Assembly (NCBI GenBank): GCA_964460215.1
Contig: CAYWQM010000005.1
Location: forward strand, 16,211 to 80,210
Length of the DNA stretch: 64,000 bases
Reading direction: 5' to 3'
Source: an uncultured Lentisphaerales bacterium
GTDB lineage: Bacteria > Verrucomicrobiota > Lentisphaeria > JABSQK01 > CAJWLW01
A model generated the notes under the pieces. It searched no databases, was not told the origin of the DNA, and saw only the letters and a program-made list of their open reading frames with translations. Both the position numbers and the translations under genes were made by a program. Positions 2,547-64,000 of the stretch are shown here, piece by piece (within the stretch, counting starts at the first letter, position 1; every line of letters begins with the position of its first letter).

Positions 2547-3361
2547 CGCTCCACAAGCGGCGGCGCCGGAACATCATATTATTCTCTGTCGTCAGTCTGC
2601 TGACCATCTGGATCAGCTTCCTCTGCGACCGCAATCATACCGATATCCGCCACTTCAGCGGTTGGCTGATGTTCGCTCTGGTCGTTTTTCTCGCCGCTTT
2701 TAATCTGCGTAAACGCCTGAGCTTTCTGCCCATCCTGCGAGCGGCTACATGGCTGCAACTGCATATTTATCTGGGCCTGTTCTGCGGCCTGATCTTTGTC
2801 ATACACGTTGGTGTTGGGTTGCCCAATGGTCCTTTGGAAATAACCTTGTCGCTCCTATTCCTTCTTGTGTTTGTAAGTGGGATTGTCGGGCTCGCCCTCA
2901 GCCGGATCTTACCGCGTCGCCTCACCAATCAGGGTGAGGAAATTATTTTTGAGCGGATGCCGATCTACCGTCGCCAACTCAGGGACAAGGCAGAGGAGCT
3001 GGTCCTGTCGTCATTGACGTCCAGTCGATCCAAGATGCTTGCGGAGTTCTATAGCGAAGAGCTGGCAGTGTTTTTTGTTGCACCGTCTTATCTGCTCTAT
3101 CACCTGTTCATGGGGCAGCGACCGTTGAATCGGATTCTGGAAAAAATCGATAATCAGAAACGCTATTGCAATGACTCCGAGTGTGAACTGATCGAGCAGC
3201 TTCGCGAATTAGTAGTCAAGACGTACGAACTTGATCGCAGCCAATATTTGCAGGGGCTCCTGAAGGTTTGGCTGTTTATCCACATTCCTGCCACCTTCGC
3301 GCTGTTCGCTTTCATTGTCCTGCATGTGATCCTCATCCACGCATATGTGGGGTCAGGCTGA
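2543..3361 (+). CDS. Polytopic membrane protein (~5 TM) with conserved intramembrane His residues; putative heme-b/quinone-interacting anchor (DUF4405-like guess)
   Basis: Hydrophobic segments LFSVVSLLTIWISF, WLMFALVVFLAAF, LHIYLGLFCGLIFVIHVGV, ITLSLLFLLVFVSGIVGLAL and WLFIHIPATFALFAFIVLHVILIHAYV contain His. Start is coupled to the upstream stop; its own stop (TGA 3359-3361) overlaps the next ATG (TGATG). Confidence 0.5.
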   Translation: MTLHKRRRRNIILFSVVSLLTIWISFLCDRNHTDIRHFSGWLMFALVVFLAAFNLRKRLSFLPILRAATWLQLHIYLGLFCGLIFVIHVGVGLPNGPLEITLSLLFLLVFVSGIVGLALSRILPRRLTNQGEEIIFERMPIYRRQLRDKAEELVLSSLTSSRSKMLAEFYSEELAVFFVAPSYLLYHLFMGQRPLNRILEKIDNQKRYCNDSECELIEQLRELVVKTYELDRSQYLQGLLKVWLFIHIPATFALFAFIVLHVILIHAYVGSG

Positions 3362-5760
3362 TGCAATTGCAGGAATTCCGCCATGATCAGAGCAGCTATG
3401 AGCGACCCGGCCAGAAATGGGTCTGCGGCCGACTGGCAGACGGCCGGCCATGCAGCTGCGGTCCGAAACCCAATGGCCGATGCAGCCAGTCGGATAATCC
3501 ATGCAAGCCACAGCTGAGCCTTCGCTGTAAGCGTAATATGCTGGCCCTGTTTGTCTTTCTCGGCAGTTGGGTGATTGTCGGCGTGGCGCTGTTTCTGCAA
3601 AATGAAACGGATGTATACATCTCGCCGGGTGAACTGAGCTTCCATCACGGGATAGTTCGCGACGAGGACGGGAAGACGAATTGCGGAGCCTGTCATGACA
3701 TGAACGCCGATCATGGTTGGCTGAACGCCGCGGTGTCGCCAAAAACCGCCTTGGACCACAGCCGGAAATGTCTGGATTGTCATTTTCTTGACAAGTCTGA
3801 CGATTTGCTTAAGCCGCATGGCCTTGCCAGCGGGCGTGGATTTTCCGCTGCGATCAAGGAGAAATTTGATGTGGATGTGGCGTGTAGCAAATGTCACGTT
3901 GAGCATAAGGGGTTCAATGCTCCGGTCACCGTGCTGAGCGATGCGCAGTGCCAGTCCTGCCACGAAAAACAGTTCGATGGCTTCAATCAGGGGCACCCGG
4001 AGTTTACCCTGTACCCCTACGCCAATCAGGTCAGCGTCAGGTTCGACCACCGACAGCATCTGGACGTCAAGTCAAAGGAGATGAAGGCGATCGGCGGCAA
4101 ATGCAGCCATTGCCACGTCCCGTCTGCGTCCGGGCGAATGATGCAACACAGGCCTTTTAAGGAGACTTGTGCTGCTTGTCATCTCAACCCGAATCTATTT
4201 AACAAGTCTTCGGCACAACTCACCCTCCTCAAGCTCAACCCACCCAGCGCCTCCGATGCGGCAGATATCACGCCGTTGATGCGGCTTTTCTCTCCGGAAT
4301 TGAATCGTCTTGCAGAGAGTGAAAGCGCCGATCCTGTCAGTGTCCATATGGCGACTCGACGCTTCCTCCGTCAGTTGCAGCTGGGGTTGCCGCTGGTCGA
4401 ATCCCAGTCTGGCCCGGTACGATCTATCTTTGAACGCCTGTCTGCCGACACGGTAAACGAAACGATGGGGGCTGAGGAGCTTGACCGCAGCCTGTTCTAC
4501 TATGATTATGCCAAAGACACTGAACAGGGTAAGGCTTGGATATACTGGCTGCTGGCCTCCCGCTTAACCGACAAAGACATCAATGCTGTTGAAGAACGGC
4601 TTGTGCAGCGCTTCGTGGATGTGAACAGTGGGGGCCTGAGCGGGGAATTCGAGTTCTTCAAGCTGCTGGACGCGGAGAATTCTCTGCATGATCTCGTCAC
4701 CGCCGCCGTGGCCTCCGGCAAGCTGGCAGCCTACACGAAGGGGGTGATCGCTGCCGATGATCCCGAAATTGAGGCGATTGTCAACTATCTGAAGTCTGAC
4801 CAGATGAAGATGCATATTGCCGAGATCGTAAAATCTATTCCACCGAATTTAAAACTATCGACCCCCGAGAAGGCGCTCAAGAAGCAATTGGACAAGATCG
4901 CAAAAAAACTCAGTCCCGAGGAGAAGGCGCTCCCTGTCCGTGACCGGCTTTGCAAGCTCATCCTGGAGGACCGGGCAAGGGGAAAGTTCAAAAAATACAG
5001 TTCCTCGTTGTTGAAGAAAAAGGACAAAAACCTTTACACCTACCTCTCCAAGACCAAGGCTGCGGACCTGGAGAAGACAAAGGTGGATGATTGCCTGAAG
5101 GCCATCGACTCGAGCCTCTCGAAAATCGCCAACCTCCTGGCAATCGAGGGCGGTGCGGCGTCGAAGTTGCCGGTCATGCCGAAGGGGTTCAAGCCCCGCT
5201 GGGAGCCGCCGCCAGCCGCGACGGTCCGCCATCGATTGGAGGTGGCATCGATAAGCAATTGGCGCTTTGAGGCGTCCAATGATTCTTTGATCTACACCAG
5301 CACTGGCCATGCGGATCCGGTCTTCAAGGCGGTACATGAACTGGCGGCGCAATTGAGTGACAAGGCATCTCCAAAACTCCTTGCGGAGTTGTCACGAGGA
5401 GGGCAGTGCCGGTTCTGTCATCAGCCGGAAATAAGCTTTCGCACGGAGCCGCGGCAGGTGCAGATGAAGTGGGTAACGGCCAAGCCCAAGCGGTTGCAGA
5501 AATTCAATCACGAGCGCCACGCCGGCCTTGATTGCCGAACCTGTCACCAGTTCAAGGAAGAAAATAGCGCTGTTGCCACTCTTTTCCCCGGCTACAAGGG
5601 AAGCTTCGAGCCGATTAGTCGGTCGCTGTGCGCGAGGTGCCATCAACCCCAGAAGGTTGGCGACGGCTGTCTCAAGTGTCATAACTACCATCCCATGTCA
5701 CTGGCCCATGACAAGCAGCAGCACGAATACCTCCTGCGCCTCTTCCGCCGTCAGAAATAA
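3361..5760 (+). CDS. Decaheme c-type cytochrome, N-terminal Cys-rich cytosolic tail plus single TM anchor
   Basis: Ten CXXCH motifs: CGACH, CLDCH, CSKCH, CQSCH, CSHCH, CAACH in the N-terminal block and CRFCH, CRTCH, CARCH, CLKCH in the C-terminal block. TM helix MLALFVFLGSWVIVGVALFL is preceded by CGRLADGRPCSCGPKPNGRCSQSDNPC. A ~400-aa heme-free, Lys-rich middle region is present. Start chosen at the ATG at 3361 (ORF track opens at 3268 but that 5' part overlaps the upstream gene). Confidence 0.8.
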   Translation: MQLQEFRHDQSSYERPGQKWVCGRLADGRPCSCGPKPNGRCSQSDNPCKPQLSLRCKRNMLALFVFLGSWVIVGVALFLQNETDVYISPGELSFHHGIVRDEDGKTNCGACHDMNADHGWLNAAVSPKTALDHSRKCLDCHFLDKSDDLLKPHGLASGRGFSAAIKEKFDVDVACSKCHVEHKGFNAPVTVLSDAQCQSCHEKQFDGFNQGHPEFTLYPYANQVSVRFDHRQHLDVKSKEMKAIGGKCSHCHVPSASGRMMQHRPFKETCAACHLNPNLFNKSSAQLTLLKLNPPSASDAADITPLMRLFSPELNRLAESESADPVSVHMATRRFLRQLQLGLPLVESQSGPVRSIFERLSADTVNETMGAEELDRSLFYYDYAKDTEQGKAWIYWLLASRLTDKDINAVEERLVQRFVDVNSGGLSGEFEFFKLLDAENSLHDLVTAAVASGKLAAYTKGVIAADDPEIEAIVNYLKSDQMKMHIAEIVKSIPPNLKLSTPEKALKKQLDKIAKKLSPEEKALPVRDRLCKLILEDRARGKFKKYSSSLLKKKDKNLYTYLSKTKAADLEKTKVDDCLKAIDSSLSKIANLLAIEGGAASKLPVMPKGFKPRWEPPPAATVRHRLEVASISNWRFEASNDSLIYTSTGHADPVFKAVHELAAQLSDKASPKLLAELSRGGQCRFCHQPEISFRTEPRQVQMKWVTAKPKRLQKFNHERHAGLDCRTCHQFKEENSAVATLFPGYKGSFEPISRSLCARCHQPQKVGDGCLKCHNYHPMSLAHDKQQHEYLLRLFRRQK

Positions 5761-6031: not shown

Positions 6032-6841
6032 GTGACAATGAAACTTACAGCAGAAGAAGTAGCCAAATTTGAAGACGAAGGATATTTATTTTTTCCCAAC
6101 AAGTTTTCCAGTGCCGAGGCGAAGGTCCTGAAAAATGCCGCGGGTGATGTCTATGCTATGGACCGCGAGGAAGTCTGGAGGGAAAGTTCCGGTGTCGCCC
6201 GCACGGCATTCGCGGCCCACACGTACCATGAAGCCTTCATGCGCCTTGGCTGCCACCCGAGATTGATCGGGCCTGTAAGCCAGCTGCTCGACGGGCAGGT
6301 CTACATACACCAGTATAAAGTCAATGCCAAAGCCGCCTTCGACGGTGACGTCTGGCAATGGCATCAGGACTATGGCACGTGGAAACGCGACGATGACATG
6401 CCGGAACCCAGGGCCATGAATATCGCTGTATTCCTTGACGATGTGACCGCGGCCAATGGGCCCCTTTTGTTTATTCCAGGCAGCCACAAACTCGGCGTCA
6501 TAGATGCAGGGCACGACCTTGAAACCACCAGCTATCCGCTGTGGACACTGGATCGGGAAACAGTAACTGAACTGGCGGAACGGGGTGGCTGTGTCGCGCC
6601 AACTGGTCCGGCAGGCAGTGTCCTCCTGTTTTCATCCCTGATGGTTCACGCAAGCCCTCCAAACATCAGCCCATTTGGACGGATCATCGTTTATCTTTCC
6701 CTGTGTCAGGTTGATAATCACATCCGGCAATTCAACCGCGAGGAATGGATTGCACACCGTGATTTCACACCAATCGAGCCCCTGGCCGATGATTGCCTCG
6801 AAGAACTGATAGGTGACGGTGGACAAGGGGCAGCGGAGTAG
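6032..6841 (+). CDS. Phytanoyl-CoA dioxygenase (PhyH) family Fe(II)/2-oxoglutarate dioxygenase, ectoine-hydroxylase-like
   Basis: VWQWHQDYGTWKRDDDMPEP...NGPLLFIPGSHK resembles the EctD/PhyH signature (W-H-x-D ... GPL..IPGSHK). Confidence 0.75.
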   Translation: MTMKLTAEEVAKFEDEGYLFFPNKFSSAEAKVLKNAAGDVYAMDREEVWRESSGVARTAFAAHTYHEAFMRLGCHPRLIGPVSQLLDGQVYIHQYKVNAKAAFDGDVWQWHQDYGTWKRDDDMPEPRAMNIAVFLDDVTAANGPLLFIPGSHKLGVIDAGHDLETTSYPLWTLDRETVTELAERGGCVAPTGPAGSVLLFSSLMVHASPPNISPFGRIIVYLSLCQVDNHIRQFNREEWIAHRDFTPIEPLADDCLEELIGDGGQGAAE

Positions 6842-7023: not shown

Positions 7024-7440
7024 ATGAAAGGAATTAAGGCCGCGGCAATCCAGTTTACTCACGCGCCTGGGGACAAAGCGTTTAACTGGGGGAGGATTCG
7101 ATCGTTCGTTAGGGAGGCCGCTGCGCAAGGCGTGGACCTCATTGTTTTTCCGGAGATGTGCATAACCGGCTACTGGCATGTGAGGAAGCTCTCCAGGGCA
7201 GAGGTCGAGTCCCTGGCCGAGTCTGTTCCGGCCGGCCTCTCGACGCAGGAACTGCTTACACTCGCAGCGGCCAATAACATGACCATTGGCGCCGGACTCA
7301 TCGAGATCACCGATGCCGGAGAACTGTTCTCTCATGCGTGGCCAAAGAAAGGTAGCGGAGAGAAGCACCCCTTCTGGATACCATGCACAAACCCTCTTGC
7401 GAAAGAAGAGATCCTCTCTAACCTTCGGGCATTCTCATGA
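7024..7440 (+). pseudogene. N-terminal fragment of a carbon-nitrogen hydrolase (nitrilase superfamily); homology ends at ~7329 (..ITDAGELF)
   Basis: AAIQFTHAPGDKAFNW...DLIVFPEMCITGY...TIGAGLIEITDAGELF matches the N-terminal half of CN_hydrolase including the catalytic-Glu FPE motif. Downstream residues (SHAWPKKGSGEKHPFW...) have no family similarity. Its stop overlaps the start of the inserted transporter gene (ATGA at 7437-7440). Confidence 0.55.
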
Positions 7441-8306
7441 TCGTTAACGTTCTTCTGCCACTCATTCTCGCCTTTATCATGTTCTCTCTTGGGCTGGGAC
7501 TAAAAAAGGCTGATTTTACCCGCGTGGTGCAATTCCCTACCGCCTTTGGAGTAGGCCTATGCAACCAGCTATTCTTGCTTCCTGTCATTGCCTTTGCCTT
7601 AGTAAAAGCCTTTAACCTTAGCGGTGAACTGGCAGTGGGCATGATGATTCTTTCCTTCTGTCCAGGAGGCGTGACCACCAATGTTTTGGCCCGCCTTTCT
7701 AAAGGAAATGTCCCACTTTCCATTTCCATGACCGCCTTCACCAGTCTTGCGTCGATTCTGACCGTTCCTTTTTTAGTAGCCCTGAGCGTTCGGCACTTTT
7801 TAGGGGCTGAAGCACTTGCTGTGAATGTTGGCGAGCTAGGCATCAAAATGTTCCTTATCACCGCCGTTCCCGTTCTCCTGGGGATGCTCGTCACGAAGAT
7901 GGCACCGGGCTTCACCAAAACAGCGTCTAAACCAATTTCCTTAATCGCCATTGGTCTCTTCTGTCTCATGATTGTCGCAGCGCTTGCTAAGAACTGGGAC
8001 GTCGTTGCAAAGCATTTCCCAACCCTTGGTCCTGCCCTCATCACGCTCAATATCACCCTGTTAGCGGTCGGTTTTCTTAGCTCGCGCCTCGCCAAGCTCG
8101 ATACCAAAGATGCCTCCACGATCAGCATCGAATCTGGAATCCAGAATGGGACTCTTGGTATCGCTGTGGGCGCTCTTATCGCCGCTGGAACGGCCGAAAC
8201 CCTTCCTCCAACAACCGTTCCTTCAGCCGTTTACGGAGTCTCCATGTACTTAGTTTCTATTCCCTTTGTCATCTGGAGAGCGAAAACAAACCGCTCTAGC
8301 GATTAG
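7437..8306 (+). CDS. Bile acid:sodium symporter (BASS/SBF) family transporter
   Basis: ~9 TM helices; LSFCPGGVTTNVLARLSKGNV is characteristic of BASS. GC (~50%) and codon usage differ from the flanks (~62%). Confidence 0.75.
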   Translation: MIVNVLLPLILAFIMFSLGLGLKKADFTRVVQFPTAFGVGLCNQLFLLPVIAFALVKAFNLSGELAVGMMILSFCPGGVTTNVLARLSKGNVPLSISMTAFTSLASILTVPFLVALSVRHFLGAEALAVNVGELGIKMFLITAVPVLLGMLVTKMAPGFTKTASKPISLIAIGLFCLMIVAALAKNWDVVAKHFPTLGPALITLNITLLAVGFLSSRLAKLDTKDASTISIESGIQNGTLGIAVGALIAAGTAETLPPTTVPSAVYGVSMYLVSIPFVIWRAKTNRSSD

Positions 8307-8480: not shown

Positions 8481-9161
8481 AACACCTATGTCGTTGCCAT
8501 GCCGGACGGTCGTGTTGAAAGCCATCGCAAGCTCCACTGTTTCATCAGCGAGCATATGAAGTCTGGCGATGCGTACACGGTGTTCGATATCCCGCAGGGT
8601 GCCCGCGTAGGTGTTCTCATCTGTTTTGACAATAACATTGGTGAGAATGTGCGAATAACGGCGCTGAAGGGCGCGGAGATCCTGTTGGCGCCGCACCAGA
8701 CAGGCGGGTGTGATTTTCCGAGTCCCCGTTGCATGGGTAAGATCGACCCGCAGTTGTGGGAAAACCGAGACCGTGATGCCGCCGCGATCGAGGCTGAATT
8801 TCGTGGGCCCAAGGGGCGAGAATGGTTGATGCATTGGCTCCCGGCTCGAGCTCATGACAATGGGCTGTTCCTGGTCTACAGCAATGGTGTGGGTGTTGAT
8901 GACGACGAGGTGCGTACGGGCAACGCCATGATCCTCGACCCCTACGGCGACATTCTGTCCGAGACGTGGGTGCCGCGGGATGCAATGGCCGTGGCGGACC
9001 TTGATCCCGATTGTCTCGACATGTGCACGGGTCAACGTTGGTTGACAACTCGCCGGCCGGAACTGTATGGGCCGCTCATTGAGCGATCCGGCAAGGAGAA
9101 AGATACGCGCACGGTGCGCTTTGCCAGGAAACAATCACCCGACCAGGCTCCGTCAGGCTAA
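8481..9161 (+). pseudogene. C-terminal fragment of the same carbon-nitrogen hydrolase (first ATG at 8499; homology starts ~8481 right after an in-frame stop)
   Basis: NTYVVAMPDGRVESHRKLHCF...GARVGVLICFDNNIGE...LFLVYSNGVGVDDDEVRTGNAMILDPYGDIL matches the CN_hydrolase C-terminal half (YRKLH Lys, catalytic Cys in ICFD). It continues exactly where the 7024 fragment stops (..GELF | NTYVV..). Confidence 0.55.
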
Positions 9162-9300
9162 CAAGCGGCCCGAGCCGACGGTGGGGACGCTGCAGGATAT
9201 TGCCGCCTGCGAGGCAGCCTGAAAAAACAGTCGCTGAGGAGCCGGGTGGCACTGAAAGAAGCCTGGCACTGCTGAGCTGCTCGGAGCAGCCGCAGTTCAT

Positions 9301-9948
9301 TCAGAAAATGCCGTGGTCGAGATACGCCTGCTGCGGATCTTCGCCTTGCAGGATTGCTTTGCGCACCAGGCTCTCGGTCTGCATCACCTTTTCGGTCTCT
9401 TCGATCACCGGCTCGGCAAGGTCGCCGGGGATGATGACGATGCCATCGCGATCGCCGAGCACATAGTCGCCGGTGGCGATCGTCACGCCGCCGATATCAA
9501 TCGGTTCGCCGAAGGTCTCAGGCAGCCAGCGCCCGACGATGTCGTGCGGCGTGAAGTAGCGGCAGAAGACCTTGAACCCGAAGCGGATGATATAATCGGA
9601 ATCACGGCAACCGCCGTCGACGATGTAACCGCGGACGCCGCGGAAGAGCATCGTCTCGGCCGAGAGCTCGCCCATGTGCGCGATAGTGGCGTCATTCGGT
9701 TGGCAGATGACCACGTGGTCGCCCGGGGCTTTTGATAACATGCCGGTCCACTGCAGCAGGGTCTCATGTGGATCCGCCGCCTGGGCGCGGCCGCTCAACG
9801 TCCAGATCCGGCCGGCAACTTTCCAGGTCGGCTCGATCGGTTTGATATCGGTGGGCAGTGTCTGTTCTGCAAAACCGCGGTTTCTCAAGACGTCATAAAC
9901 GGCGGCGGAATAACATTGCTCGAGACGCTGTGCAAGGTTGTCACTCAT
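9301..9948 (-). CDS. RraA-family protein (RNase E regulator / 4-hydroxy-4-methyl-2-oxoglutarate aldolase-like)
   Basis: GELSAETMLFRGVRGYIVDGGCRDSDYI is an RraA/MenG-like motif; ~215 aa. Confidence 0.8.
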   Translation of the reverse strand: MSDNLAQRLEQCYSAAVYDVLRNRGFAEQTLPTDIKPIEPTWKVAGRIWTLSGRAQAADPHETLLQWTGMLSKAPGDHVVICQPNDATIAHMGELSAETMLFRGVRGYIVDGGCRDSDYIIRFGFKVFCRYFTPHDIVGRWLPETFGEPIDIGGVTIATGDYVLGDRDGIVIIPGDLAEPVIEETEKVMQTESLVRKAILQGEDPQQAYLDHGIF

Positions 9949-9966
9949 GTCAAATCCCTTCCGGGT

Positions 9967-10407
9967 TCATAGCATTTGGATGAATTCGACTTCGATACCG
10001 TCCGGGTCGCTCACGTACAGCAGTTTCGCGACCTTCGTGCCATCGCGCGCGAGGATGATCGGCCCGCGCCATTGCCGGAGCCCGCGACGCTTGAGCGTAT
10101 TCAGCGTTCGCGCCACGCTGTCGACCTCGAAACAGAGTCGCACGGCACCCACGTCTGACATCTTGCGTGACCGCTTGCGACTCTTCGGCCGCAGGTATTC
10201 GACAAGCTCGAGGGGATACCCGTCCGCCTCGGCTTCGACGAACGCGACACGAACCCGCGCGCCATCGGCCTGCAGGATCTCATCGTAGCTTGGCCCTTCG
10301 CGCACGGCATCGCGGGTCAGGCGCATGCCGAGCAGGTCCCGATAGAACGCCAGAGAGGTGTCCATGTCGGAGACAACAAGCAGACAGCGATGTGGGTGCA
10401 GCTTCAT
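9967..10407 (-). CDS. VOC/glyoxalase-bleomycin resistance family protein
   Basis: MKLHPHRCLLVVSDMDTSLAFYRDLLGMRL...VRLCFEVDSV has a glyoxalase-like fold pattern. The ORF extends to 10479 but the start at MKLHP (10407) is more plausible. Confidence 0.65.
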   Translation of the reverse strand: MKLHPHRCLLVVSDMDTSLAFYRDLLGMRLTRDAVREGPSYDEILQADGARVRVAFVEAEADGYPLELVEYLRPKSRKRSRKMSDVGAVRLCFEVDSVARTLNTLKRRGLRQWRGPIILARDGTKVAKLLYVSDPDGIEVEFIQML

Positions 10408-10668
10408 TGTGTGTCCGCGATTTTGAGGAAGGCGATACCGAACCATGGCGGCGTCGACGGTGATGCGGAGTCGTTGCATTGTAATGAGTTGTCGTATCCG
10501 TTATTCTACTACTTCACGAACGAGAAGCGAACATTATCGGAGCACACGGATCCGTCGTTGTGCAACCTGCCCAGACACGCGGATCGGGTACCGGCACTTG
10601 CAACTTGCCACGTAGCGGCTGAGCGTATACACTTGCACCCGAAAAACCACTTGTAGGAGAGATCTACC

Positions 10669-11976
10669 ATGCATGCAGCAACTGCGAAACTTAATGAACT
10701 GGTCGAACAGGATCTGGCGATCAGGAATGGACCGCAAGCGGTTGAGGAGGCTGGTAGCCAGGCGGATTTGTTTCATTGGCCAATTGTGACGGAAGAAGAC
10801 GAGCAGGCAGTGCTCGAAGTGTTGCGTGACGGCGGTCGGCCGTCGGGCACGGACATCAGCATGCAGCTCGAAGCCGAGATGGCAGCGTGGCATGGTGTGA
10901 AGCACGGATTGACCTATCCCAACGGCACACTGGCATTGCAGACGGCTTTCTGGGCGGCCGGCGTCCGTTGCGGCGATGAGATCATCGTTCCCAGCATCAC
11001 CTACTGGGCCAGTGCCATGCCGGCATTCGCGCTCGGTGCGACCGTCGTCTATGCCGACATCGACGCAGATACGCTGTGTATAGATCCGAACGATATCGAG
11101 CGGCACATCAGCCCGCGCACGAAGGCGATCGTGCCGGTGCATTATTGCGGACATCCGTGCGACATGGACGCGATCCTGCCGATCGCCCAGAAGCATGGAC
11201 TGAAAGTGATCGAGGACGTATCGCATGCCCAGGGTACCTTGTACAAGGGCAGGATCGTCGGATCGTTCGGAGACGCCGCGGCGTTTTCGATGATGTCGGC
11301 CAAGAGCTTCGCTGCCGGTGAAGGCGGCATGCTGATCACCGACGACGACGGCATCCAGCAGCATGCCATCGCCTATGCGCACTATGCGCGACACGAGTCG
11401 CTCGAGCATCCGGACCTGGCGCCGCTGGCCGGCATACCGTTCGGCGGCATCAAGGGGCGGCTCAATCAGATGTGCTCGGCTGTGGCGCGGGTGCAGTTCA
11501 AGTATTACCCGGACCGAATCAAAAATATCCAGGCGGCGATCAACCGGTTCTGGGACCTGCTTGCGGACACCCCGGGCCTGCGAGCGCATCGGCCCGCGGC
11601 GGACTCCGGCAGCACGATGGGCGGCTGGTACTGTGCGGTCGGGCATTACCTGCCGGAGGAACTCGGTGGTCTGCCGGCGGCAAAGTTCTGCGAAGCGGTC
11701 CGGGCGGAAGGCAGCGACACGAATGCGGGCTGCAATTTCCCCTTGCACCTGCACCCGGTGATGAACGACGCTGATATCTACGGCGACGGCAAGCCTACGC
11801 GCATTGCCAACTCCGGTCGTGACCTGCGCCAGCCCGAAGGTTCATTGCCGGCGGCGGAAGCAACGCGCGGCCGGGTCATCACTATTCCGTATCTGAAGCA
11901 CGACCGGCCGGAAGCCGTCGAGCAGCACGCCGCAGCATTCCGCAAAGTCGCCTTGCAGGCGGACAAGCTCGTCTAG
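10669..11976 (+). CDS. DegT/DnrJ/EryC1/StrS-family PLP-dependent (sugar) aminotransferase
   Basis: WPIVTEEDEQAVLEVLRDG...GDEIIVPSITYWASAM...AIVPVHYCGHPCDMDAIL...SFSMMSAKSF (Lys in SAKS) is typical of DegT family. Confidence 0.85.
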   Translation: MHAATAKLNELVEQDLAIRNGPQAVEEAGSQADLFHWPIVTEEDEQAVLEVLRDGGRPSGTDISMQLEAEMAAWHGVKHGLTYPNGTLALQTAFWAAGVRCGDEIIVPSITYWASAMPAFALGATVVYADIDADTLCIDPNDIERHISPRTKAIVPVHYCGHPCDMDAILPIAQKHGLKVIEDVSHAQGTLYKGRIVGSFGDAAAFSMMSAKSFAAGEGGMLITDDDGIQQHAIAYAHYARHESLEHPDLAPLAGIPFGGIKGRLNQMCSAVARVQFKYYPDRIKNIQAAINRFWDLLADTPGLRAHRPAADSGSTMGGWYCAVGHYLPEELGGLPAAKFCEAVRAEGSDTNAGCNFPLHLHPVMNDADIYGDGKPTRIANSGRDLRQPEGSLPAAEATRGRVITIPYLKHDRPEAVEQHAAAFRKVALQADKLV

Positions 11977-12156
11977 TGTCTATGTCACAACCGTTGCATG
12001 TTTCGCTCGGTTCGGAGCACGGCGACTTCATCGGCATTTCACACCTGCCGGCCGGCGCGGCTGCCTTTCCAGGCACGGTCAAACTTGCACGCGTGTCCGA
12101 TTGCGCGCGCGCGACGGCGATTGGATACGAACGCAAAACGAGGAGTTGAAGACAAT

Positions 12157-13212
12157 ATGAGTGGCAAGAGCAAGAAAATACGCGTCGGTTTGATCCGCTG
12201 CGACACGCATGGCATGTGGTACGGACCGCTGATGGAGAAACACGATCCGTTGCTTCTCCGCGAACCGATGCCGGTTGGCGAACCGTCCAAGGAATCGTGG
12301 CAGCAGGGTGGCAACTGGTACTATTTCTATACCTACTACTGCCGGCCGACGATGATGACTGCCAAGCAGGTCAGTGGTTTCGAAATCGTCAAGCTGTGGG
12401 ATGCAGATCGTAGCCTTGCGGAGATGGCGTCGAAAGTGTTTTATGGTCGCCCCGTAGTTTGCGATCGCCTCGAAGATGTCAGTGACGACGTCGACCTTGT
12501 TTTCATTTCCGACTGCAATGGTGACGGCAGCGACCATCTTGAGTTGTCGACGCCGGGATTGAAGAAAGGCGTGGCAACATTTATTGACAAACCGTTCGCC
12601 TATACGCTGAAAGATGCTTACAAGATGCTGCGGTTGGCGGATAAACATGGTGCCCCGCTGATGAGTCTGTCGATGATGCGCACGGCGCCGACGGTCGTAC
12701 AGTTTCGTAATCGCCTGGCTGAAACGGGCGGCTGCAATTTCGGATCGATCTATGGCGGCGGGACGCCACTGGCGGGATTGTACCACTCGATCGCCCTGAC
12801 TCAGGCGACGTTCGGGACCGGGATCGAGTCGGTACAGGCGATGGCCGGGCCGCGTCAGACGCTGATCCATCTTGGTTATGGCGACCGTGCCGGCCGACCC
12901 GAACAGGGCGTGACGGTGAACTGCAACGTCGGTCCGACCTTTCACTGCGCTTTCTACCTGAGCGCACTCGGTCCGAAGACTAAAATCAATTCCGAGGACA
13001 TCGGGGACTGGGTCAATCCCGCTTCGGCCGCCGAGGTGTTGAAACGCATCAGGCGCATGATGCGCACCGGCAAACCGACGGAGACTGCAGCGGACATGGT
13101 CGAGCAGGTCGCCGTGGGCGAGGCTTTTCGGCAAGCGCTCGAGTCGGGGAAGATTGTCAACGTCCGGTCATTGATCCGGCGCACCGGAGGCAAGGCGTAT
13201 CTTGCCGAATGA
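12157..13212 (+). CDS. Gfo/Idh/MocA-like oxidoreductase (divergent, no canonical GxGxxG)
   Basis: KIRVGLIRCDTHGMWYG...VVCDRLEDV...GVATFIDKPFAYTLKDAYKMLRLADKHGAPLMS parallels the Gfo/Idh/MocA N-terminal layout. RBS AGGAG lies ~11 nt upstream of the ATG at 12157. The ORF track's 11998 start is unlikely. Confidence 0.55.
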   Translation: MSGKSKKIRVGLIRCDTHGMWYGPLMEKHDPLLLREPMPVGEPSKESWQQGGNWYYFYTYYCRPTMMTAKQVSGFEIVKLWDADRSLAEMASKVFYGRPVVCDRLEDVSDDVDLVFISDCNGDGSDHLELSTPGLKKGVATFIDKPFAYTLKDAYKMLRLADKHGAPLMSLSMMRTAPTVVQFRNRLAETGGCNFGSIYGGGTPLAGLYHSIALTQATFGTGIESVQAMAGPRQTLIHLGYGDRAGRPEQGVTVNCNVGPTFHCAFYLSALGPKTKINSEDIGDWVNPASAAEVLKRIRRMMRTGKPTETAADMVEQVAVGEAFRQALESGKIVNVRSLIRRTGGKAYLAE

Positions 13213-13320
13213 GCGATTGGCTGTAGCACCCGCGGAACCGCCGGTTGAATTGCTTTGCATGCATTGCATATTCCGCGTTGCTCTCTACCAAGTGCAACCT
13301 TAACCTGCAGGCAACCAACT

Positions 13321-14112
13321 ATGGCAGCAAAGAAACACATCGTCTCTGCTCAACTTTATACTCTGCGCGACTATACACATAGCGTTAAAGAGATCGTCAA
13401 GTCGATGCGTAAAATCCGCAAGATCGGTTACACCTCGGCGCTGTTTTCCGCCATGGCGTCGCTCGATCCGGCCGAGCTGCGGCGACTCATGACGGACGAA
13501 GGTGTCGAGCCGATCAGCGCCCATGTCGGTCTGGATGAATACGCAGACATCCCCGCTGTCGCCGCCCAGTGCCATGGCTGGGGTGTCAAGCATGTGGTGA
13601 TCCCGTATTTGCCGCTCGACTCCGTACCGACCGTCGCCAGTTGGAAGAAGATAGCCCGGCAATTTTCGGCGTACGGCAAAGCGCTTGCGAAGGAAGGCGT
13701 CATTCTGCTGTACCATAATCATGCCTTCGAGTTCCAGAAGTATGGCATACGCGGCGGCAGAGGGGGGCAGGTGGGCTTGGATATCCTGTTCGAAAACAGC
13801 GATCCGCGGTACCTGCAGTCCGAGCTCGATATCGGCTGGGTCGCGCGTGGCGGACATAATCCGGTGACTTGGGTGAAGAAACTGAAGGGGCGCCTTGATC
13901 AGGTGCATGTAAAGGACTGGGGCATGCTCAACAACGAACCGGTGTGGCGCGCAGTAGGCGAGGGCGGCATCGAATGGCCGGCGGTCATCAAGGCTTGCAA
14001 GGCGTCCGGCACAAGGCATTTCATCGTCGAGCAGGACGAATGCCCGATCACTAATAACCCGTTCAAGAGCATGCAGATCAGCTTCGAGAACCTGCAGGCG
14101 CTCGGGATGTAA
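13321..14112 (+). CDS. Sugar phosphate isomerase/epimerase (xylose-isomerase-like TIM barrel)
   Basis: Length ~263 aa. IGYTSA...HVGL...HGWGVKHVVIPY...ILLYHNHAFEF...ELDIGWV is the AP-endonuclease-2/XI-like TIM pattern. Confidence 0.75.
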   Translation: MAAKKHIVSAQLYTLRDYTHSVKEIVKSMRKIRKIGYTSALFSAMASLDPAELRRLMTDEGVEPISAHVGLDEYADIPAVAAQCHGWGVKHVVIPYLPLDSVPTVASWKKIARQFSAYGKALAKEGVILLYHNHAFEFQKYGIRGGRGGQVGLDILFENSDPRYLQSELDIGWVARGGHNPVTWVKKLKGRLDQVHVKDWGMLNNEPVWRAVGEGGIEWPAVIKACKASGTRHFIVEQDECPITNNPFKSMQISFENLQALGM

Positions 14113-14114
14113 AT

Positions 14115-14966
14115 TTATCCGCGCGCTGGCTCCGTCATCTCTTCGCGAGCTTTGGCCGCCAGTGCCGCCAGGTGCCCGTCGTTTGCCATGCCCTGTTCCA
14201 GATGGACCAGCCGTTGCGCGTTCGCCGTTGCCATCATGGTTTCACCGTACATACGGTCGATCCAGAACCGGGCGTTTCCGGCGATATGATCCTTGAGCTC
14301 GGGGATCTGATCGTCCGGGAAGCGCTGCGAACAGTTGATGGTGAACATGCGCCGCCGGGGATCGCCACCGAAGGCCGCGTGTTTCAGGTTGTGATTGAAC
14401 ACCAGCACGTCGCCTGGATCGGTCTCCAACGCGATTGCCGGCAGGTCCTTGCCTTCCACACCCCAGAGTAACGGTTTCTTTTTCGGTATTATCTGCTGCA
14501 GCTTTTCGGAGTAGGTGTCGCCGGTGTTGTGACTGCCGGGGATGACGCGCAGGCAGCCGGTCTCACGCGTCAGCGGATCAAGGTAGAGCGCGATCTTGAC
14601 ATAGCGCAACACCGCCGGGTGCCAGCCGTCCGAGTGCCAGACCGTGTCGCCGGCGTAGTAGTTGCCGTCGGAACCCATGTAATTAAAGTTGTTCCCGAGC
14701 AGACTGCAAAGCAGACCGTAGATGCACGGTTCCTCAAGCAACGCACAGAGCCGCTCATGCTGGTCGATAAATGGCACGATACAGGAGCGCTGCGTAGGGT
14801 CGTGTGCCTTGCCGTCGTGCCCATCGCCGCGTGTTGCCCAGATTTCATCGAACGCGGCAGTGATCTCTGCGATACTGTCGGCCAGTGCTCCGGGCAATGC
14901 CAGAAAACCGAACGTATCGAAGAATTCCAATTGTTCAGGTGTGAGATCGTGTGATGACATGGACAA
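14115..14966 (-). CDS. Phytanoyl-CoA dioxygenase (PhyH) family protein
   Basis: TVWHSDGWH...LRVIPGSHN...HNLKHAAFGG is an Fe/2OG PhyH-like His-x-Asp...His arrangement. Confidence 0.75.
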   Translation of the reverse strand: MSMSSHDLTPEQLEFFDTFGFLALPGALADSIAEITAAFDEIWATRGDGHDGKAHDPTQRSCIVPFIDQHERLCALLEEPCIYGLLCSLLGNNFNYMGSDGNYYAGDTVWHSDGWHPAVLRYVKIALYLDPLTRETGCLRVIPGSHNTGDTYSEKLQQIIPKKKPLLWGVEGKDLPAIALETDPGDVLVFNHNLKHAAFGGDPRRRMFTINCSQRFPDDQIPELKDHIAGNARFWIDRMYGETMMATANAQRLVHLEQGMANDGHLAALAAKAREEMTEPARG

Positions 14967-15148
14967 CTCCGTATTGTCCCAATAAACTGGACGGTGGCCA
15001 CTGTTTTTTCAAGATGACGTCGCTGCGAATGCGTGAGTGCGCGCAACTATAATGAGACTGAAACTGTCGATTATGTCGATATTGTCATTTCGGCAGCCGG
15101 GCTGCTGATCGTTTTGTCTACGACAGGCTGAAGGGCAGGGTACTGCGT

Positions 15149-15790
15149 TCAGCGCATTGCCCACAGCAAACCACGACGCTGGATCTCACGCGCCTCGGGC
15201 ACGTCGAAGTCGCTGGCGACATGGCCGAGAGAAGAGTAGAAAACCCGGCCCTTGTCGCAATAGCGTTTCCACACTACCGGCATGACACAGCCGTTGGCCC
15301 ACGGCGCTTCCTCGCATTCAATCGTGGTTGTGACCAGGACCTCGTTTGACGGGTCGACATGCATGTAATACTGCTCCGAGTGCATCGCGAAATCGTTGAG
15401 GCCCGCGGTGATCGGATCGTCGTGATCAATGATCTGGACGGTGTAGTCTTTGACATTGTCCAGATGAGCTACCCACTGGCCGCCGACGATGAACTGGTAT
15501 GGCGTAGATTGGCGGAAGGCATCGCCCGCGCCGCCGTGCCAGCCTCCGAAACCGACCCCGGACTGCACTGCGGCAGCAAGTGCTTCGCACTGATCACCGC
15601 TGATTTCGGACATCGTCCAGCAGGGCACGATCAGATCGTATTGCGTCAAGTCCCGGTCGGTCAGGCACTCAAGCGTGTCGGTGATGGTTACTTCGCAGCC
15701 TTCGGCGCGCATGAGGCTGGCGAATATGCCGGTTGTTTGCTCGGGGTCATGGCCGTCCCAGCCGCCCCACGTCATTAAGACTTTCTTCAT
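15149..15790 (-). CDS. ThuA-like (trehalose-utilisation / class-I glutamine-amidotransferase-like) protein
   Basis: [15 protein letters not shown]...[11 protein letters not shown]...SSLGH is a ThuA-family signature; ~213 aa. Confidence 0.75.
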
Positions 15791-15926
15791 GCGTCAACCC
15801 CGTTGTTGTCATTTGCAAGATAAGTAAGTACTGCATCTCCTTACGGATTCAAATGGGGTAGAACCGAATCTGTCGTTATCTTGCTGCACCGTTGCACAAA
15901 TCAACGATCCACGATATTCTTATCCG

Positions 15927-17072
15927 ATGCCCTCACTTCAGTTCCACACAGGCCTTCTTGTCTTGGCAATGTCAGCCATGCATATGGCTGCGGCTGTTGT
16001 CGCGGAAGAGAACCATGCCCGGGCGGAAGCGGCGCTTACCCGCGGTGCGGAGCGGTTGCTGGCGTTGCAGAACGACGACGGATCATGGGGGAAACCGCCG
16101 ATGATCGGGATCACAGCCCTATGTGTCATTGCTTTGCACGATGCCCCCGGCATCGATGCCGGGAAACGCGACGCCGCGATCGATGCCGGTATAGAGTTCC
16201 TGCTTGCCGATCTTGACGAGGACGGCACGGCAGAGAAGTTCTTCGGGCTGCGTAGTCAGTCGGCCTTCTGGGAGAAGACGCCGCGCTACGCCACCTATTC
16301 GATCGCCGTCACGCTCCTGGCCATGGCGACCGTTGACAAGCCCGAACACATACCACTGATCAAACGTGGCCGTGCCTACCTGCGTACGCTGCAGCGGGTC
16401 AACCCCAATTCAAAGCACCACGGCGGCTTCGGCTATGGTGCCGGTGGCCGCAGCGCCAACCTGTCGATTACTGCCTGGTCCGCCGAGGCCATGCACCACA
16501 CAGCCTATGTCGAGGGTGACGAGCACGGTGCAGACCCGACCGTGACAGCACAGAACGAGGTAATGTGGGCGTCGATCGAAGCATTTCTCGAGGCAACTCA
16601 GAAAAATCCGACTGTGGGCCAAGATGCTGCCGAGGACAGCGATGCCGGCGGACTCGGCTACAAGCCGTCGAAGGATGCCTCGAAAGTGGTTGTCAGCGGA
16701 GCGATGAGCTATTCCGGGTACAAGACCATGTTGTACGCCAAGCTGCCGCCCGATGATGTTCGCGTCCGGGCAGTGCGGAAATACATCGCTGCGAACTACG
16801 ATTTGTCTGAGGATCCCGGCAGGGGGAAGGCCGGTTATTACTACTATTTGCACGCGATGGCGAGGGCGCTGGACGCGGCTGGTTTGGATAGTCTGAAGCT
16901 TACGGACGGGCGTTTGGTCAAATGGCGCGAGGAGATTATCTCTGTGCTCGTTGGGCTGCAAGGCGAGGATGGCGGCTGGCACAATGCGTACGGCAAGTAT
17001 ATGGAATCGATCCCGGAGCTGGTGACGGCCTACGCCATGATGACCCTCAAGACCACTCTCGGTACCCCGTAG
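15927..17072 (+). CDS. Secreted prenyltransferase/squalene-oxidase-repeat (alpha-alpha toroid) protein
   Basis: Signal-peptide-like N-terminus. Repeats LQNDDGSWG and LQGEDGGWHN are typical of the terpene-cyclase/prenyltransferase beta-subunit repeat family common in PVC bacteria. Confidence 0.6.
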   Translation: MPSLQFHTGLLVLAMSAMHMAAAVVAEENHARAEAALTRGAERLLALQNDDGSWGKPPMIGITALCVIALHDAPGIDAGKRDAAIDAGIEFLLADLDEDGTAEKFFGLRSQSAFWEKTPRYATYSIAVTLLAMATVDKPEHIPLIKRGRAYLRTLQRVNPNSKHHGGFGYGAGGRSANLSITAWSAEAMHHTAYVEGDEHGADPTVTAQNEVMWASIEAFLEATQKNPTVGQDAAEDSDAGGLGYKPSKDASKVVVSGAMSYSGYKTMLYAKLPPDDVRVRAVRKYIAANYDLSEDPGRGKAGYYYYLHAMARALDAAGLDSLKLTDGRLVKWREEIISVLVGLQGEDGGWHNAYGKYMESIPELVTAYAMMTLKTTLGTP

Positions 17073-61740: not shown

Positions 61741-62271
61741 ATGGCGTACAAGGTATTTATCTTTACATTGTTAATGATCACCTGGGTTGTTCTCTCAGGG
61801 CAGTTCGACGCTTTTCACTTGGCTCTGGGCCTGATCTCGTGTGGCCTGGTGACGTGGATGTCATCGGACTTGTTATTCCAAACCCGCGAGCAGTCGGTTG
61901 GAGAGAGGGTCTGTGAAGGTTGGAGGTTGGCTTTTTATTTTTTGTGGATGATCTGGCAGATTTTTCTGGCGAACATTGCGGTTCTGCGACTCGCTTTGTC
62001 GCCTGATGCGATGAAGAAAATCAATCCGAGCATTGTTCACTTCAAGACCGGACTGAAATCCGACTTCGCCAAATTTCTGCTCGCCAACTCGATTACCCTA
62101 ACCCCTGGAACGGTGACGATTAAAATCATGGGGGATGACTTTTATGTGCATGCAATTAATGATGCGGCGGCGGCGGGATTAGATGGTGAAATGGAACGCC
62201 GCATTGCCCGCATCTATCGTTCTGAGCGGGATGCTCGGGGTGGCAACTCGGACGGAAAGGAGTCTGCCTGA
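61741..62271 (+). CDS. mrpE: Na+/H+ antiporter subunit E (MrpE/MnhE; MbhA-like)
   Basis: ..LANSITLTPGTVTI.. (TLTPGT signature) and 2 TM helices. Confidence 0.8.
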   Translation: MAYKVFIFTLLMITWVVLSGQFDAFHLALGLISCGLVTWMSSDLLFQTREQSVGERVCEGWRLAFYFLWMIWQIFLANIAVLRLALSPDAMKKINPSIVHFKTGLKSDFAKFLLANSITLTPGTVTIKIMGDDFYVHAINDAAAAGLDGEMERRIARIYRSERDARGGNSDGKESA

Positions 62272-62272
62272 T

Positions 62273-62584
62273 ATGATCACTTTTTTCATGTGGGCGGGAA
62301 TTGCCTTATTGATCATGATGATCCCGATTTTTTATCGGATGAATATTGGGCCGACGGCAATTGATCGCATTGTCGCGGTCAATGTGATTGGTACTAAAAC
62401 AGCTATACTACTTGTTTTTATAGGCACGATTTTTCCCGGACAGAGGATCGGGATGTTCGTGGATTTTGCCTTGGCGTACGGGCTGTTGAATTTCATCGGC
62501 TCACTGGCAGCAGCGAGATTTTTCCATCGTTCCAAAGCGACGGGAGGAAAAATTGATGTTGCGGGAGACGCAAGGAAATCCTGA
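62273..62584 (+). CDS. mrpF: Monovalent cation/H+ antiporter subunit F (MrpF/MnhF; MbhB-like)
   Basis: ..GPTAIDRIVAVNVIGTKTAILLV.. is an MrpF motif. Start at MITFFMW (ORF track opens 62183). Confidence 0.75.
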   Translation: MITFFMWAGIALLIMMIPIFYRMNIGPTAIDRIVAVNVIGTKTAILLVFIGTIFPGQRIGMFVDFALAYGLLNFIGSLAAARFFHRSKATGGKIDVAGDARKS

Positions 62585-62587
62585 GTT

Positions 62588-62953
62588 ATGATTATCGATA
62601 CAATCAGCATAATTCTCATCGTAGCGGGCCTGGTGTTTTTCTTTGGCTCGGTTGTCGGAGTGATTCGCTTCCCTGACTTTTACACACGCATGCATGCTGC
62701 GGGCAAGGGAGATACTTTGTCGAGTTTGCTCGTGGTGATGGGCTTTGCGGTTTATCATTTCGGGCAAGTACATTGGACAAATTTTGTATGGGCGGATTTG
62801 CTGGTCATAGTCAAACTGCTCGCTATTTGCGCTTTCATCATGCTGACGTCACCGACGGCTACGCATGCGCTGATGGATGCCGGGTATGAGGACGGAATCG
62901 AACCGTTGACGCGCAAGGAAGGGAATGCCTTGTCTCAAAACGAAAGCGAGTAA
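62588..62953 (+). CDS. mrpG: Monovalent cation/H+ antiporter subunit G (MrpG/MnhG; MbhC-like)
   Basis: VIRFPDFYTRMHAAGKGDTLSSLL is the classic MnhG motif. Confidence 0.85.
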   Translation: MIIDTISIILIVAGLVFFFGSVVGVIRFPDFYTRMHAAGKGDTLSSLLVVMGFAVYHFGQVHWTNFVWADLLVIVKLLAICAFIMLTSPTATHALMDAGYEDGIEPLTRKEGNALSQNESE

Positions 62954-62974
62954 TAAGAGAATATTTTTCACAGC

Positions 62975-63220
62975 ATGATCTGGCAGTTCGACATCATTAT
63001 TCTTCTTTTCCTCGTGGTCACCGCAGTGATCTCGTTACGGGTGAAAGATTTACTGGCAGCATCAATGATCTTCGGGACTTACAGTTTTCTCATCTGTCTG
63101 CTGTGGGCGGGGATGGGGGCCGTGGATGTGGCATTTACCGAAGCCGCGGTGGGGGCGGGTATCAGCGCGGTTATTCTGATCGCCACCGTTTACAATACTA
63201 AAAGAAAATCATCGGATTGA
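62975..63220 (+). CDS. Small membrane subunit, MbhD/DUF4040-like (MrpB N-terminal-domain-like)
   Basis: 81 aa, 2-3 TM helices. Sits between mrpG and mrpB, as MbhD does in Mbh-type modules. Confidence 0.5.
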   Translation: MIWQFDIIILLFLVVTAVISLRVKDLLAASMIFGTYSFLICLLWAGMGAVDVAFTEAAVGAGISAVILIATVYNTKRKSSD

Positions 63221-63224
63221 ATTT

Positions 63225-63986: not shown

Positions 63987-64000
63987 TTATGGGTGCTTTT

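Follow-up and report, generated by a model that had tools for sequence, protein, structure and literature searches.

We analysed a cluster of sugar-related genes in the window, by which we mean the whole 64-kb stretch of Lentisphaerales DNA under study. Three co-directional genes encode a DegT-type aminotransferase, an atypical protein of the Gfo/Idh/MocA fold, for which we use the working name GfoL, and a xylose-isomerase-like TIM barrel homologous to the lyase AtOGE. Genes for a PhyH-family dioxygenase and a ThuA-domain protein follow on the opposite strand, and genes for a VOC/glyoxalase-fold protein and an RraA-like protein precede the cluster. On balance we favour the reading that this is a species-restricted and recently rearranged glycan-utilisation stretch of marine Lentisphaeria, holding genes of cytoplasmic keto- and amino-sugar catabolism, and not one conserved pathway. 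The source locus would then be a decaying glycan-utilisation region whose genes were brought together by recent rearrangement. The cluster itself is ordinary and not a new pathway unit. GfoL belongs to a large, cross-phylum family of the dehydrogenase fold with no characterised member among those found. With much more reserve we suggest that this family is an active, NAD-independent offshoot of Gfo/Idh/MocA in at least ten phyla, whose cleft was rebuilt as a Cys/Asp/His metal or cofactor site and which, in this Lentisphaeria lineage, may act with DegT and an OGE-type lyase to form and cleave keto-glycosides without any NAD-dependent oxidation.

Conservation and gene order of the cluster

The open reading frames (ORFs) and families assigned in the initial annotation (DegT, Gfo-like, TIM barrel, PhyH, ThuA and RraA) were confirmed by the ORF list and by profile searches. 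The DegT/DnrJ/EryC1-type aminotransferase, dependent on pyridoxal phosphate (PLP), is encoded at 10669-11976 on the + strand (435 amino acids (aa); PF01041 E 2.7e-75), GfoL at 12157-13212 on the + strand (351 aa; PF01408 over residues 70-169, E 1.4e-9) and the TIM barrel at 13321-14112 on the + strand (263 aa; PF01261 E 6.4e-9). The gaps between them are 180 nucleotides (nt) from DegT to GfoL and 108 nt from GfoL to the TIM barrel. We found the whole arrangement only in the near-identical Lentisphaeria contigs L009, L089 and L090, the first of which comes from the marine Lentisphaeria metagenome-assembled genome (MAG) CB21_323.87 and shows 99% protein identity to the window. The initial annotation had proposed a single route of sugar salvage or biosynthesis and had stated that a lack of synteny in related genomes would speak against it. 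This synteny largely fails. We examined 81 non-redundant GfoL loci other than the window, including flanks of up to 10 kb on both sides. Profile hidden Markov models (HMMs) detected a ThuA homologue in none of them and only weak matches to the TIM barrel in three (L047 with E 9e-9, L025 and L049 with ∼1e-3). Among 80 metagenomic loci centred on the TIM barrel, other genes of the cluster occurred only in the near-identical L089 and L090, and GfoL, ThuA and PhyH were absent from the vicinity of all distant TIM-barrel homologues. The proposed single route is not a conserved pathway.

The closest relatives also differ in gene content. Contig L089 has ∼93% DNA identity to the window and has three additional segments, which measure 3.0 kb, 281 bp and 705 bp and are located at 1847-4854, 6445-6725 and 11835-12539 of L089, corresponding to window positions 10473/10460, 12047/12044 and 17165/17162, respectively. 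The first falls between the VOC and DegT genes and contains a short-chain dehydrogenase/reductase (SDR), a LamG-like fragment and an ORF that, as judged by eye, resembles a CBM9-type secreted protein. The second falls between DegT and GfoL and holds what is left of the two genes found ahead of GfoL in L001, the source of the closest non-conspecific GfoL homologue (84% identity). With tblastn, the beta-helix protein that precedes GfoL in L001 matched L089 at 6379-6540 with 76% identity and the window at 11889-12065 with 46% identity, while the next L001 gene matched L089 at 6550-6693 with 65% identity. The spacer between DegT and GfoL in the window (11977-12156) thus holds a remnant of the deleted beta-helix gene, shorter than the remnant in L089. 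From these remnants it follows that the adjacency of DegT and GfoL is secondary in this lineage and came about by deletion. The locus is losing genes, and its content is unstable even at the level of the species or genus.

We then considered which links recur beyond this species. Counting VOC genes from HMMs and coordinates, we observed one directly adjacent to GfoL on the same strand in 20 of the 81 loci and within 5 kb in 26. Two other counts of VOC adjacencies were discarded: 36 from stop-to-stop ORF clusters, inflated by ORFs overlapping GfoL in other frames, and 12 from tblastn alone, which was too insensitive. SDR genes lay at most 5 kb from GfoL in 21 loci. DegT adjoined GfoL in two loci and occurred within 5 kb in six; the corresponding numbers for PhyH were two (L078 and L028) and five. 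An RraA-like homologue was present in one other locus only (L056), ∼8 kb away from the GfoL gene. In Gemmatimonadota and Latescibacterota the genes form a compact GfoL-VOC-SDR-SDR module, frequently with an enolase-superfamily dehydratase close by. In bacteria of the Planctomycetota-Verrucomicrobiota-Chlamydiota (PVC) group GfoL is translationally coupled to ∼1040-aa proteins resembling GH42M, GH123 or LamG- or CBM9-bearing proteins, and these couplings sit inside glycan-utilisation loci. In two Planctomycetota, L022 and L023 (Mariniblastus), DegT overlaps GfoL by 8 nt and is translationally coupled to it, and the gene order in L022 is SDR-SDR-enolase-VOC-DegT-GfoL. A 266-aa gene downstream of GfoL in L022 was considered as a TIM-barrel homologue and ruled out. 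The links of GfoL with VOC and, more rarely, with DegT are the sole ones that recur beyond this species, and the VOC/DegT/GfoL trio is the only part of the window arrangement to do so. The VOC gene is the most informative neighbour.

Several points weigh against reading the cluster as a product of recent rearrangement. Pairwise links exist, between DegT and an OGE-like barrel in L173 and L176 and through the overlap of DegT and GfoL in L022 and L023, so that a real three-enzyme route is possible. Given their shared direction and the short gaps, the DegT, GfoL and TIM-barrel genes may also be co-transcribed and may cooperate here despite the young arrangement. Gene direction suggests three transcription units, namely VOC-RraA (− strand), DegT-GfoL-TIM barrel (+ strand) and ThuA-PhyH (− strand). 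The operon structure is unproven, as a scan of 9000-16200 for promoter and terminator consensus sequences gave counts equal to the shuffled expectation and was uninformative in this respect. The products of the cluster carry no signal peptides and therefore would be cytoplasmic, with imported sugars or small glycosides as their substrates.

The Gfo-like protein and its family

The N-terminus of GfoL reads KIRVGLIRCDTHGMWYG and is devoid of GxGxxG. At the fingerprint position between β1 and helix A the protein has R14-C15-D16-T17-H18-G19 in place of GxGxxG/A. Across 47 aligned homologues, down to 48% identity, C15, D16 and H18 are invariant and R14 is nearly so; the loss of the glycine-rich loop is thus not peculiar to the window copy, and the absence of the motif described in the initial annotation extends to the whole family. 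The same homologues share H29-D30, C102, D119-C120, H127, D144-K145-P146 and H210 without exception; besides K145 and H210, ∼30 residues, mostly polar and cleft-lining, are invariant across phyla. The Gfo/Idh/MocA fold assigned to this protein was likewise upheld. A structure prediction based on the 47-sequence alignment reached a predicted local distance difference test (pLDDT) score of 95.6 and a predicted template modelling (pTM) score of 0.93, and it has the architecture of the family, with an N-terminal Rossmann domain and a C-terminal alpha/beta domain. The predicted fold contains the full Rossmann strand-helix series and a 48-residue aromatic-rich insertion between helix A and β2. The cleft-forming loops after β1, β3, β4 and β5 hold invariant Cys, Asp and His residues. 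KanD2 and GenD2 are among the structural neighbours.

Identity to canonical Gfo enzymes is only 13-18%, and matches to solved Gfo enzymes are weak. We compared the positions by a profile-profile alignment, with canonical Gfo enzymes of the analysed loci as the reference (probability 97.9). D82 corresponds to the β2 Asp, D119-C120-N121 to T-P-H after β4, H127 to a conserved His, K145 to the Lys of EKP and H210 to the catalytic His. Inspection of the sequence, with (K/R)(I/V)RVG(L/V)I as the anchor, places R14 and D16 where the fingerprint has its first two Gly residues. The solved family member 1XEA also has FVDKP. Inositol dehydrogenase and 1,5-anhydro-D-fructose reductase carry an Asp four residues upstream of the catalytic His. 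In GfoL the residue four upstream of H210 is Ala or Leu, and the Asp of the Lys-Asp-His triad is absent. Compared with Gfo/Idh/MocA oxidoreductases such as these two, KanD2/GenD2 and the glycoside 3-dehydrogenases, GfoL keeps the β2 Asp, the Lys of E/D-K-P and the catalytic-position His, but it has R-C-D-[TL]-H-[GA] for GxGxxG and D-C-N for T-P-x after β4, in addition to the missing triad Asp and the insertion.

The family is widespread. A word-indexed search returned 380 homologues. In an exhaustive search, with clustering at 50% identity, 104 clusters had E ≤ 1e-30 and 2550 clusters had E ≤ 1e-3. Scanning species-representative genomes with the pattern RCD[TL]H[GA] yielded at least 490 GfoL loci, often with several copies per genome. 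The hosts include Lentisphaeria, Kiritimatiellia, Planctomycetota, Verrucomicrobiota, Gemmatimonadota, Latescibacterota, Bacteroidota, Armatimonadota, Omnitrophota and others. Database labels for the members say at most "Gfo/Idh/MocA family oxidoreductase" or "predicted dehydrogenase", and a literature search on the family and on the combination of Gfo, glyoxalase and DegT found nothing relevant. The Lentisphaeria MAG that matches the window has at least four GfoL paralogues (L009, L044, L060 and L064), and the ORF table shows apparent tandem copies in L014, L075, L085 and L088. We also encountered a distant tier of ∼300-aa proteins (P0315, P0318, P0320, P0327, P0335 and others) that match the family profile with E 1e-39 to 1e-24. 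They have neither GxGxxG nor the 48-residue insertion and keep the His after β1 and FVDKP; the fingerprint-less group may therefore far exceed the core family.

The location of GfoL differs between lineages, as the window copy has neither a general secretory (Sec) nor a twin-arginine translocation (Tat) signal and members of the Bacteroidota type (P0019, P0021, P0024, P0025, P0029 and others) have Sec-type signal peptides without a twin arginine. Proteins exported by Sec are unfolded, and hence Sec-type GfoL would carry no pre-bound nicotinamide adenine dinucleotide (phosphate), NAD(P).

We tentatively interpret GfoL as a catalytically active descendant of sugar dehydrogenases that has kept Lys145 and His210 and would have lost canonical NAD(P) binding. 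An Asp at the pyrophosphate contact, the loops with invariant Cys, Asp and His, the Sec export of some members and the SDRs alongside all point in this direction. The invariant Cys, Asp and His residues would line the former cofactor cleft, possibly as a metal site. With canonical binding presumably lost and a putative metal site in its place, the step would probably be non-redox or metal-assisted (isomerisation, epimerisation, dehydration or hydration) and act on a keto sugar or an enone, while the SDRs that accompany GfoL elsewhere would supply the redox steps. Our best guess from the sequence features is a metal-assisted isomerase, epimerase, dehydratase or hydratase.

Some features pull the other way. 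The loss of NAD binding is deduced from sequence only, and the clustering of Cys, Asp and His into one site is based on Rossmann topology. Furthermore, the invariant Asp82 at the end of β2, the position that binds the adenosine ribose, is kept together with the DKP motif, Lys145 and His210, and Tat signals on a few members (P0096, P0328 and P0350) would fit export with a bound cofactor, as in the NADP-containing glucose-fructose oxidoreductase (GFOR), which uses Tat (PMC8121099). These features would suit an NAD(P)-dependent sugar dehydrogenase or reductase of the ordinary kind, with a non-canonical loop for cofactor binding, a reading that we regard as unlikely. In a Rossmann fold the backbone at the fingerprint glycines must approach the pyrophosphate. 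With Arg and Asp at the first two Gly positions, the acidic side chain should repel it; the role of the glycine motif is described in PMC11612644. The Sec-type signals of the Bacteroidota members, the aromatic-rich insertion after helix A and the two SDRs that are usually alongside, already giving redox steps, argue against such an enzyme as well.

Still less probable, in our view, is that GfoL is a non-catalytic pseudoenzyme comparable to human GFOD1 or yeast Gal80, which would either sense a ligand or belong, as a structural or regulatory subunit, to the large glycoside-hydrolase-like proteins to which it is coupled. In L001 and L004 the genes of GfoL and the ∼1040-aa proteins do overlap or almost touch at their stop and start codons. 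However, the Lys and His at the catalytic positions and ∼30 other residues are invariant across phyla, several paralogues per genome sit in metabolic operons with VOC and SDR genes, and exported forms exist, so that an enzyme fits better than a scaffold. Among the large partners, the 1036-aa protein downstream of the closest non-conspecific GfoL was considered as a carrier of a ThuA-like domain; it has a GH42M domain and its ThuA match is marginal (E 0.029). The other large partners resemble GH123, GHL6, LamG or CBM9 proteins.

According to a 2024 structural paper, human GFOD1 and GFOD2 are the only known cofactor-deficient members of the fold, and GFOD1 is a proposed pseudoenzyme that keeps a GxSxxA loop and has lost EKP (PMC11612644). 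GfoL has the opposite pattern, having lost the glycine loop and kept DKP and the His, and it is bacterial, multi-copy and embedded in metabolic operons. If GfoL is indeed active and NAD-independent, a bacterial cofactor-deficient enzyme family would alter this GFOD-only picture, and GfoL would be an enzyme of a new type that modifies sugars in glycan catabolism. A function could then also be assigned to genes found repeatedly in polysaccharide-degradation loci of marine and soil Planctomycetota, Verrucomicrobiota, Lentisphaerota, Gemmatimonadota, Latescibacterota and Bacteroidota.

The lyase, the aminotransferase and the ThuA protein

AtOGE is a Mn2+-dependent β-eliminase of Agrobacterium tumefaciens that cleaves C3-oxidised O-glucosides; its Mn2+ ligands are His132, Asp163, His189 and Glu233 and its essential catalytic residue is His134 (PMC10628242). 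The window TIM barrel matched AtOGE (PDB 8BVK) over residues 7-239 with E 3.3e-29 and the Bacteroidetes lyases-hydratases 8TCD, 8TCS and 8TCT with E 1e-18 to 2e-16. In the alignment to AtOGE all metal ligands and the catalytic His are conserved (H132, H134, D163, H189 and E233). This match is the strongest support for the 3-keto-glycoside chemistry that the initial annotation had connected with this enzyme family. Most likely the protein is an AtOGE-type metal-dependent lyase with a complete predicted active site that would cleave 3-keto-glycosides by β-elimination, though related hydratases have the same fold and sequence alone cannot separate lyase, hydratase and isomerase. An intact lyase of this type in Lentisphaeria would extend the reach of the oxidative and eliminative route of glycoside cleavage.

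The companions of the lyase are different in the window. In Agrobacterium the lyase is accompanied by a flavoenzyme that oxidises C3, by a hydratase and by a Gfo reductase (PMC10628242), whereas the only Gfo-fold neighbour of the window TIM barrel is the atypical GfoL. TIM-barrel homologues most often neighbour a canonical Gfo gene, whose product has both GxGxxG and EKP; we found such a gene in 16 loci. GfoL is the sole Gfo-fold gene within the 64-kb window, which contains no canonical Gfo gene with GxGxxG. Neither a GMC flavoenzyme nor a canonical Gfo 3-dehydrogenase was identified as a companion that could make the 3-keto substrate; the enzyme for this step is not encoded nearby.

For the aminotransferase, K212 aligns with the Schiff-base PLP lysine in FSFFGNKIITTGEGG of perosamine synthetase, and D183 is conserved too. 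The protein scored below every NCBIfam equivalog cut-off (e.g. 176 bits for ArnB against a cut-off of 631) and could not be placed in any of the characterised equivalogs ArnB, PseC, WecE, DesI and others. Its best solved relative is Fic25 (8GYH), with E 1e-46 over the full length, and NtdA follows well behind Fic25, perosamine synthetase and ArnB with E 1.2e-24. More than 100 homologues have 59-68% identity and are abundant in Phycisphaerae, Lentisphaeria, Armatimonadota and others; the subfamily is thus large and spans PVC bacteria, Armatimonadota and others.

Five contexts of DegT orthologues were examined. One orthologue stands alone beside dnaA, one lies within a locus of GH123, BNR and GH42 genes, and one immediately follows a heparinase II/III-type lyase gene in a locus that also has Amidohydro_2, enolase-superfamily and canonical Gfo genes. 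In the remaining two, L173 and L176 from related lineages, the gene is divergent from an OGE-like TIM barrel, so that DegT and the lyase are linked by a second and independent hint. These barrel-DegT pairs are located at 6081-8314 in L173, where the barrel is 32% identical to that of the window, and at 5098-7356 in L176, where it was taken as OGE-like from its length and Pfam family. The contexts were varied and mainly catabolic, and none resembled nucleotide-sugar biosynthesis. From its sequence the window protein is a predicted lysine-bearing PLP aminotransferase of a subfamily found mainly in catabolic glycan loci. Its probable role, within catabolism or salvage, is to convert an amino sugar into a keto sugar or the reverse.

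The ThuA gene (15149-15790, − strand; 213 aa) encodes a genuine member of PF06283, as the initial annotation had claimed, with E 1.1e-48 over profile positions 1-209 of 209. Judged by sequence features, it is a standard stand-alone ThuA-domain protein, and homologues with ∼65% identity occur across phyla. In the one orthologue that we checked (P0414, 65% identical), the gene lies 13 nt upstream of a canonical Gfo/Idh/MocA gene. The window shares a ThuA-domain protein with the 3-keto-disaccharide-forming ThuAB system of rhizobia and Agrobacterium (as summarised in PMC8121099). It differs in that no canonical ThuB is adjacent, PhyH is the gene downstream of ThuA, and the atypical GfoL is on the other strand two genes away. 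We found no thuEFGK-like sugar-transporter genes among the ORFs annotated near the cluster.

These results also bear on the pathway outlined in the initial annotation, in which GfoL oxidises C3 in the manner of ThuB or NtdC, DegT transaminates the 3-keto product, and the three remaining proteins (TIM barrel, ThuA and PhyH) modify or cleave it. Some of the findings fit. The fold, the OGE-type lyase and the ThuA protein are as expected, the adjacency of DegT and GfoL recurs in L022 and L023, and the TIM-barrel family and one ThuA orthologue do adjoin a Gfo enzyme elsewhere, a part for which GfoL is the sole candidate in the window. KanD2 and GenD2, the structural neighbours of GfoL, work with aminotransferases. 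Elsewhere, however, ThuA and the TIM barrel are partnered by canonical GxGxxG enzymes and not by GfoL; ThuA and PhyH are on the opposite strand, and no haloacid dehalogenase (HAD) phosphatase, nucleotidyltransferase or glycosyltransferase was found among the annotated neighbour genes. The analogy to the kanosamine system NtdC/NtdA/NtdB consists of a Gfo-fold gene beside a DegT-family aminotransferase for which NtdA is a detectable relative. It does not carry further: NtdC is NAD-dependent and the logic requires an NAD-dependent C3 dehydrogenase, whereas the dehydrogenase fingerprint is absent from GfoL family-wide; the window DegT is closer to Fic25, perosamine synthetase and ArnB; no NtdB-like phosphatase is among the annotated neighbours; and the context is catabolic and not biosynthetic. 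Given the synteny results and the deletion of two genes that once separated DegT from GfoL, this oxidise-then-transaminate pathway is the weakest of the alternatives and very doubtful.

Accessory genes and surroundings

The VOC/glyoxalase-fold gene (9967-10479, − strand; PF00903 E 2.2e-14) is divergent from DegT. The RraA-like gene (9301-9948, − strand; PF03737 E 1.4e-26), of the class II aldolase/oxaloacetate decarboxylase family, follows 18 nt downstream in the same direction and still adjoins VOC in L089. The RraA-like gene had been described as adjacent to the cluster; it is present, but the VOC gene, which had gone unmentioned, separates it from DegT. The NCBIfam matches of its product are all sub-threshold and are to 4-carboxy-4-hydroxy-2-oxoadipate aldolase.

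The PhyH gene (14115-14966, − strand; PF05721 E 8.6e-14) encodes an Fe(II)/2-oxoglutarate dioxygenase and lies downstream of the ThuA gene. It had been called divergent, but it is convergent with the TIM-barrel gene, with 2 nt between the stop codons. The HxD...H iron motif was recognised by eye, and weak PDB matches were to MysH and SnoK. In L078 (10001-13749), from a Verrucomicrobiota MAG, the GfoL gene is followed by three tandem PhyH paralogues; PhyH is a recurrent minor neighbour of GfoL.

The flanks of the cluster are unrelated to it. Downstream there is a prenyltransferase-repeat protein, followed by ORFs that resemble murF and surE in the ORF list. The first of these, a 381-aa ORF at 15927-17072, has weak matches to prenyltransferase/squalene-cyclase repeats and also adjoins ThuA in L009, L089 and L090. 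Upstream there are a nitrilase ORF and a transporter of the bile-acid/sodium symporter family. The carbon-nitrogen hydrolase (nitrilase-type) ORF is in two pieces, between which the complete transporter gene sits (7024-7440, 7437-8306 and 8499-9161). The N-terminal piece covers approximately the first 105 profile positions, as judged by eye, and the C-terminal piece matches positions 105-248. We searched for repeats flanking the transporter gene within the split nitrilase and found nothing convincing. The GC content is 0.533 at the split nitrilase and 0.57-0.61 in the neighbouring segments up to 14 kb. Over the last 2 kb of the 64-kb window (62001-64000) it falls to 0.495, and the GC skew climbs to 0.168.

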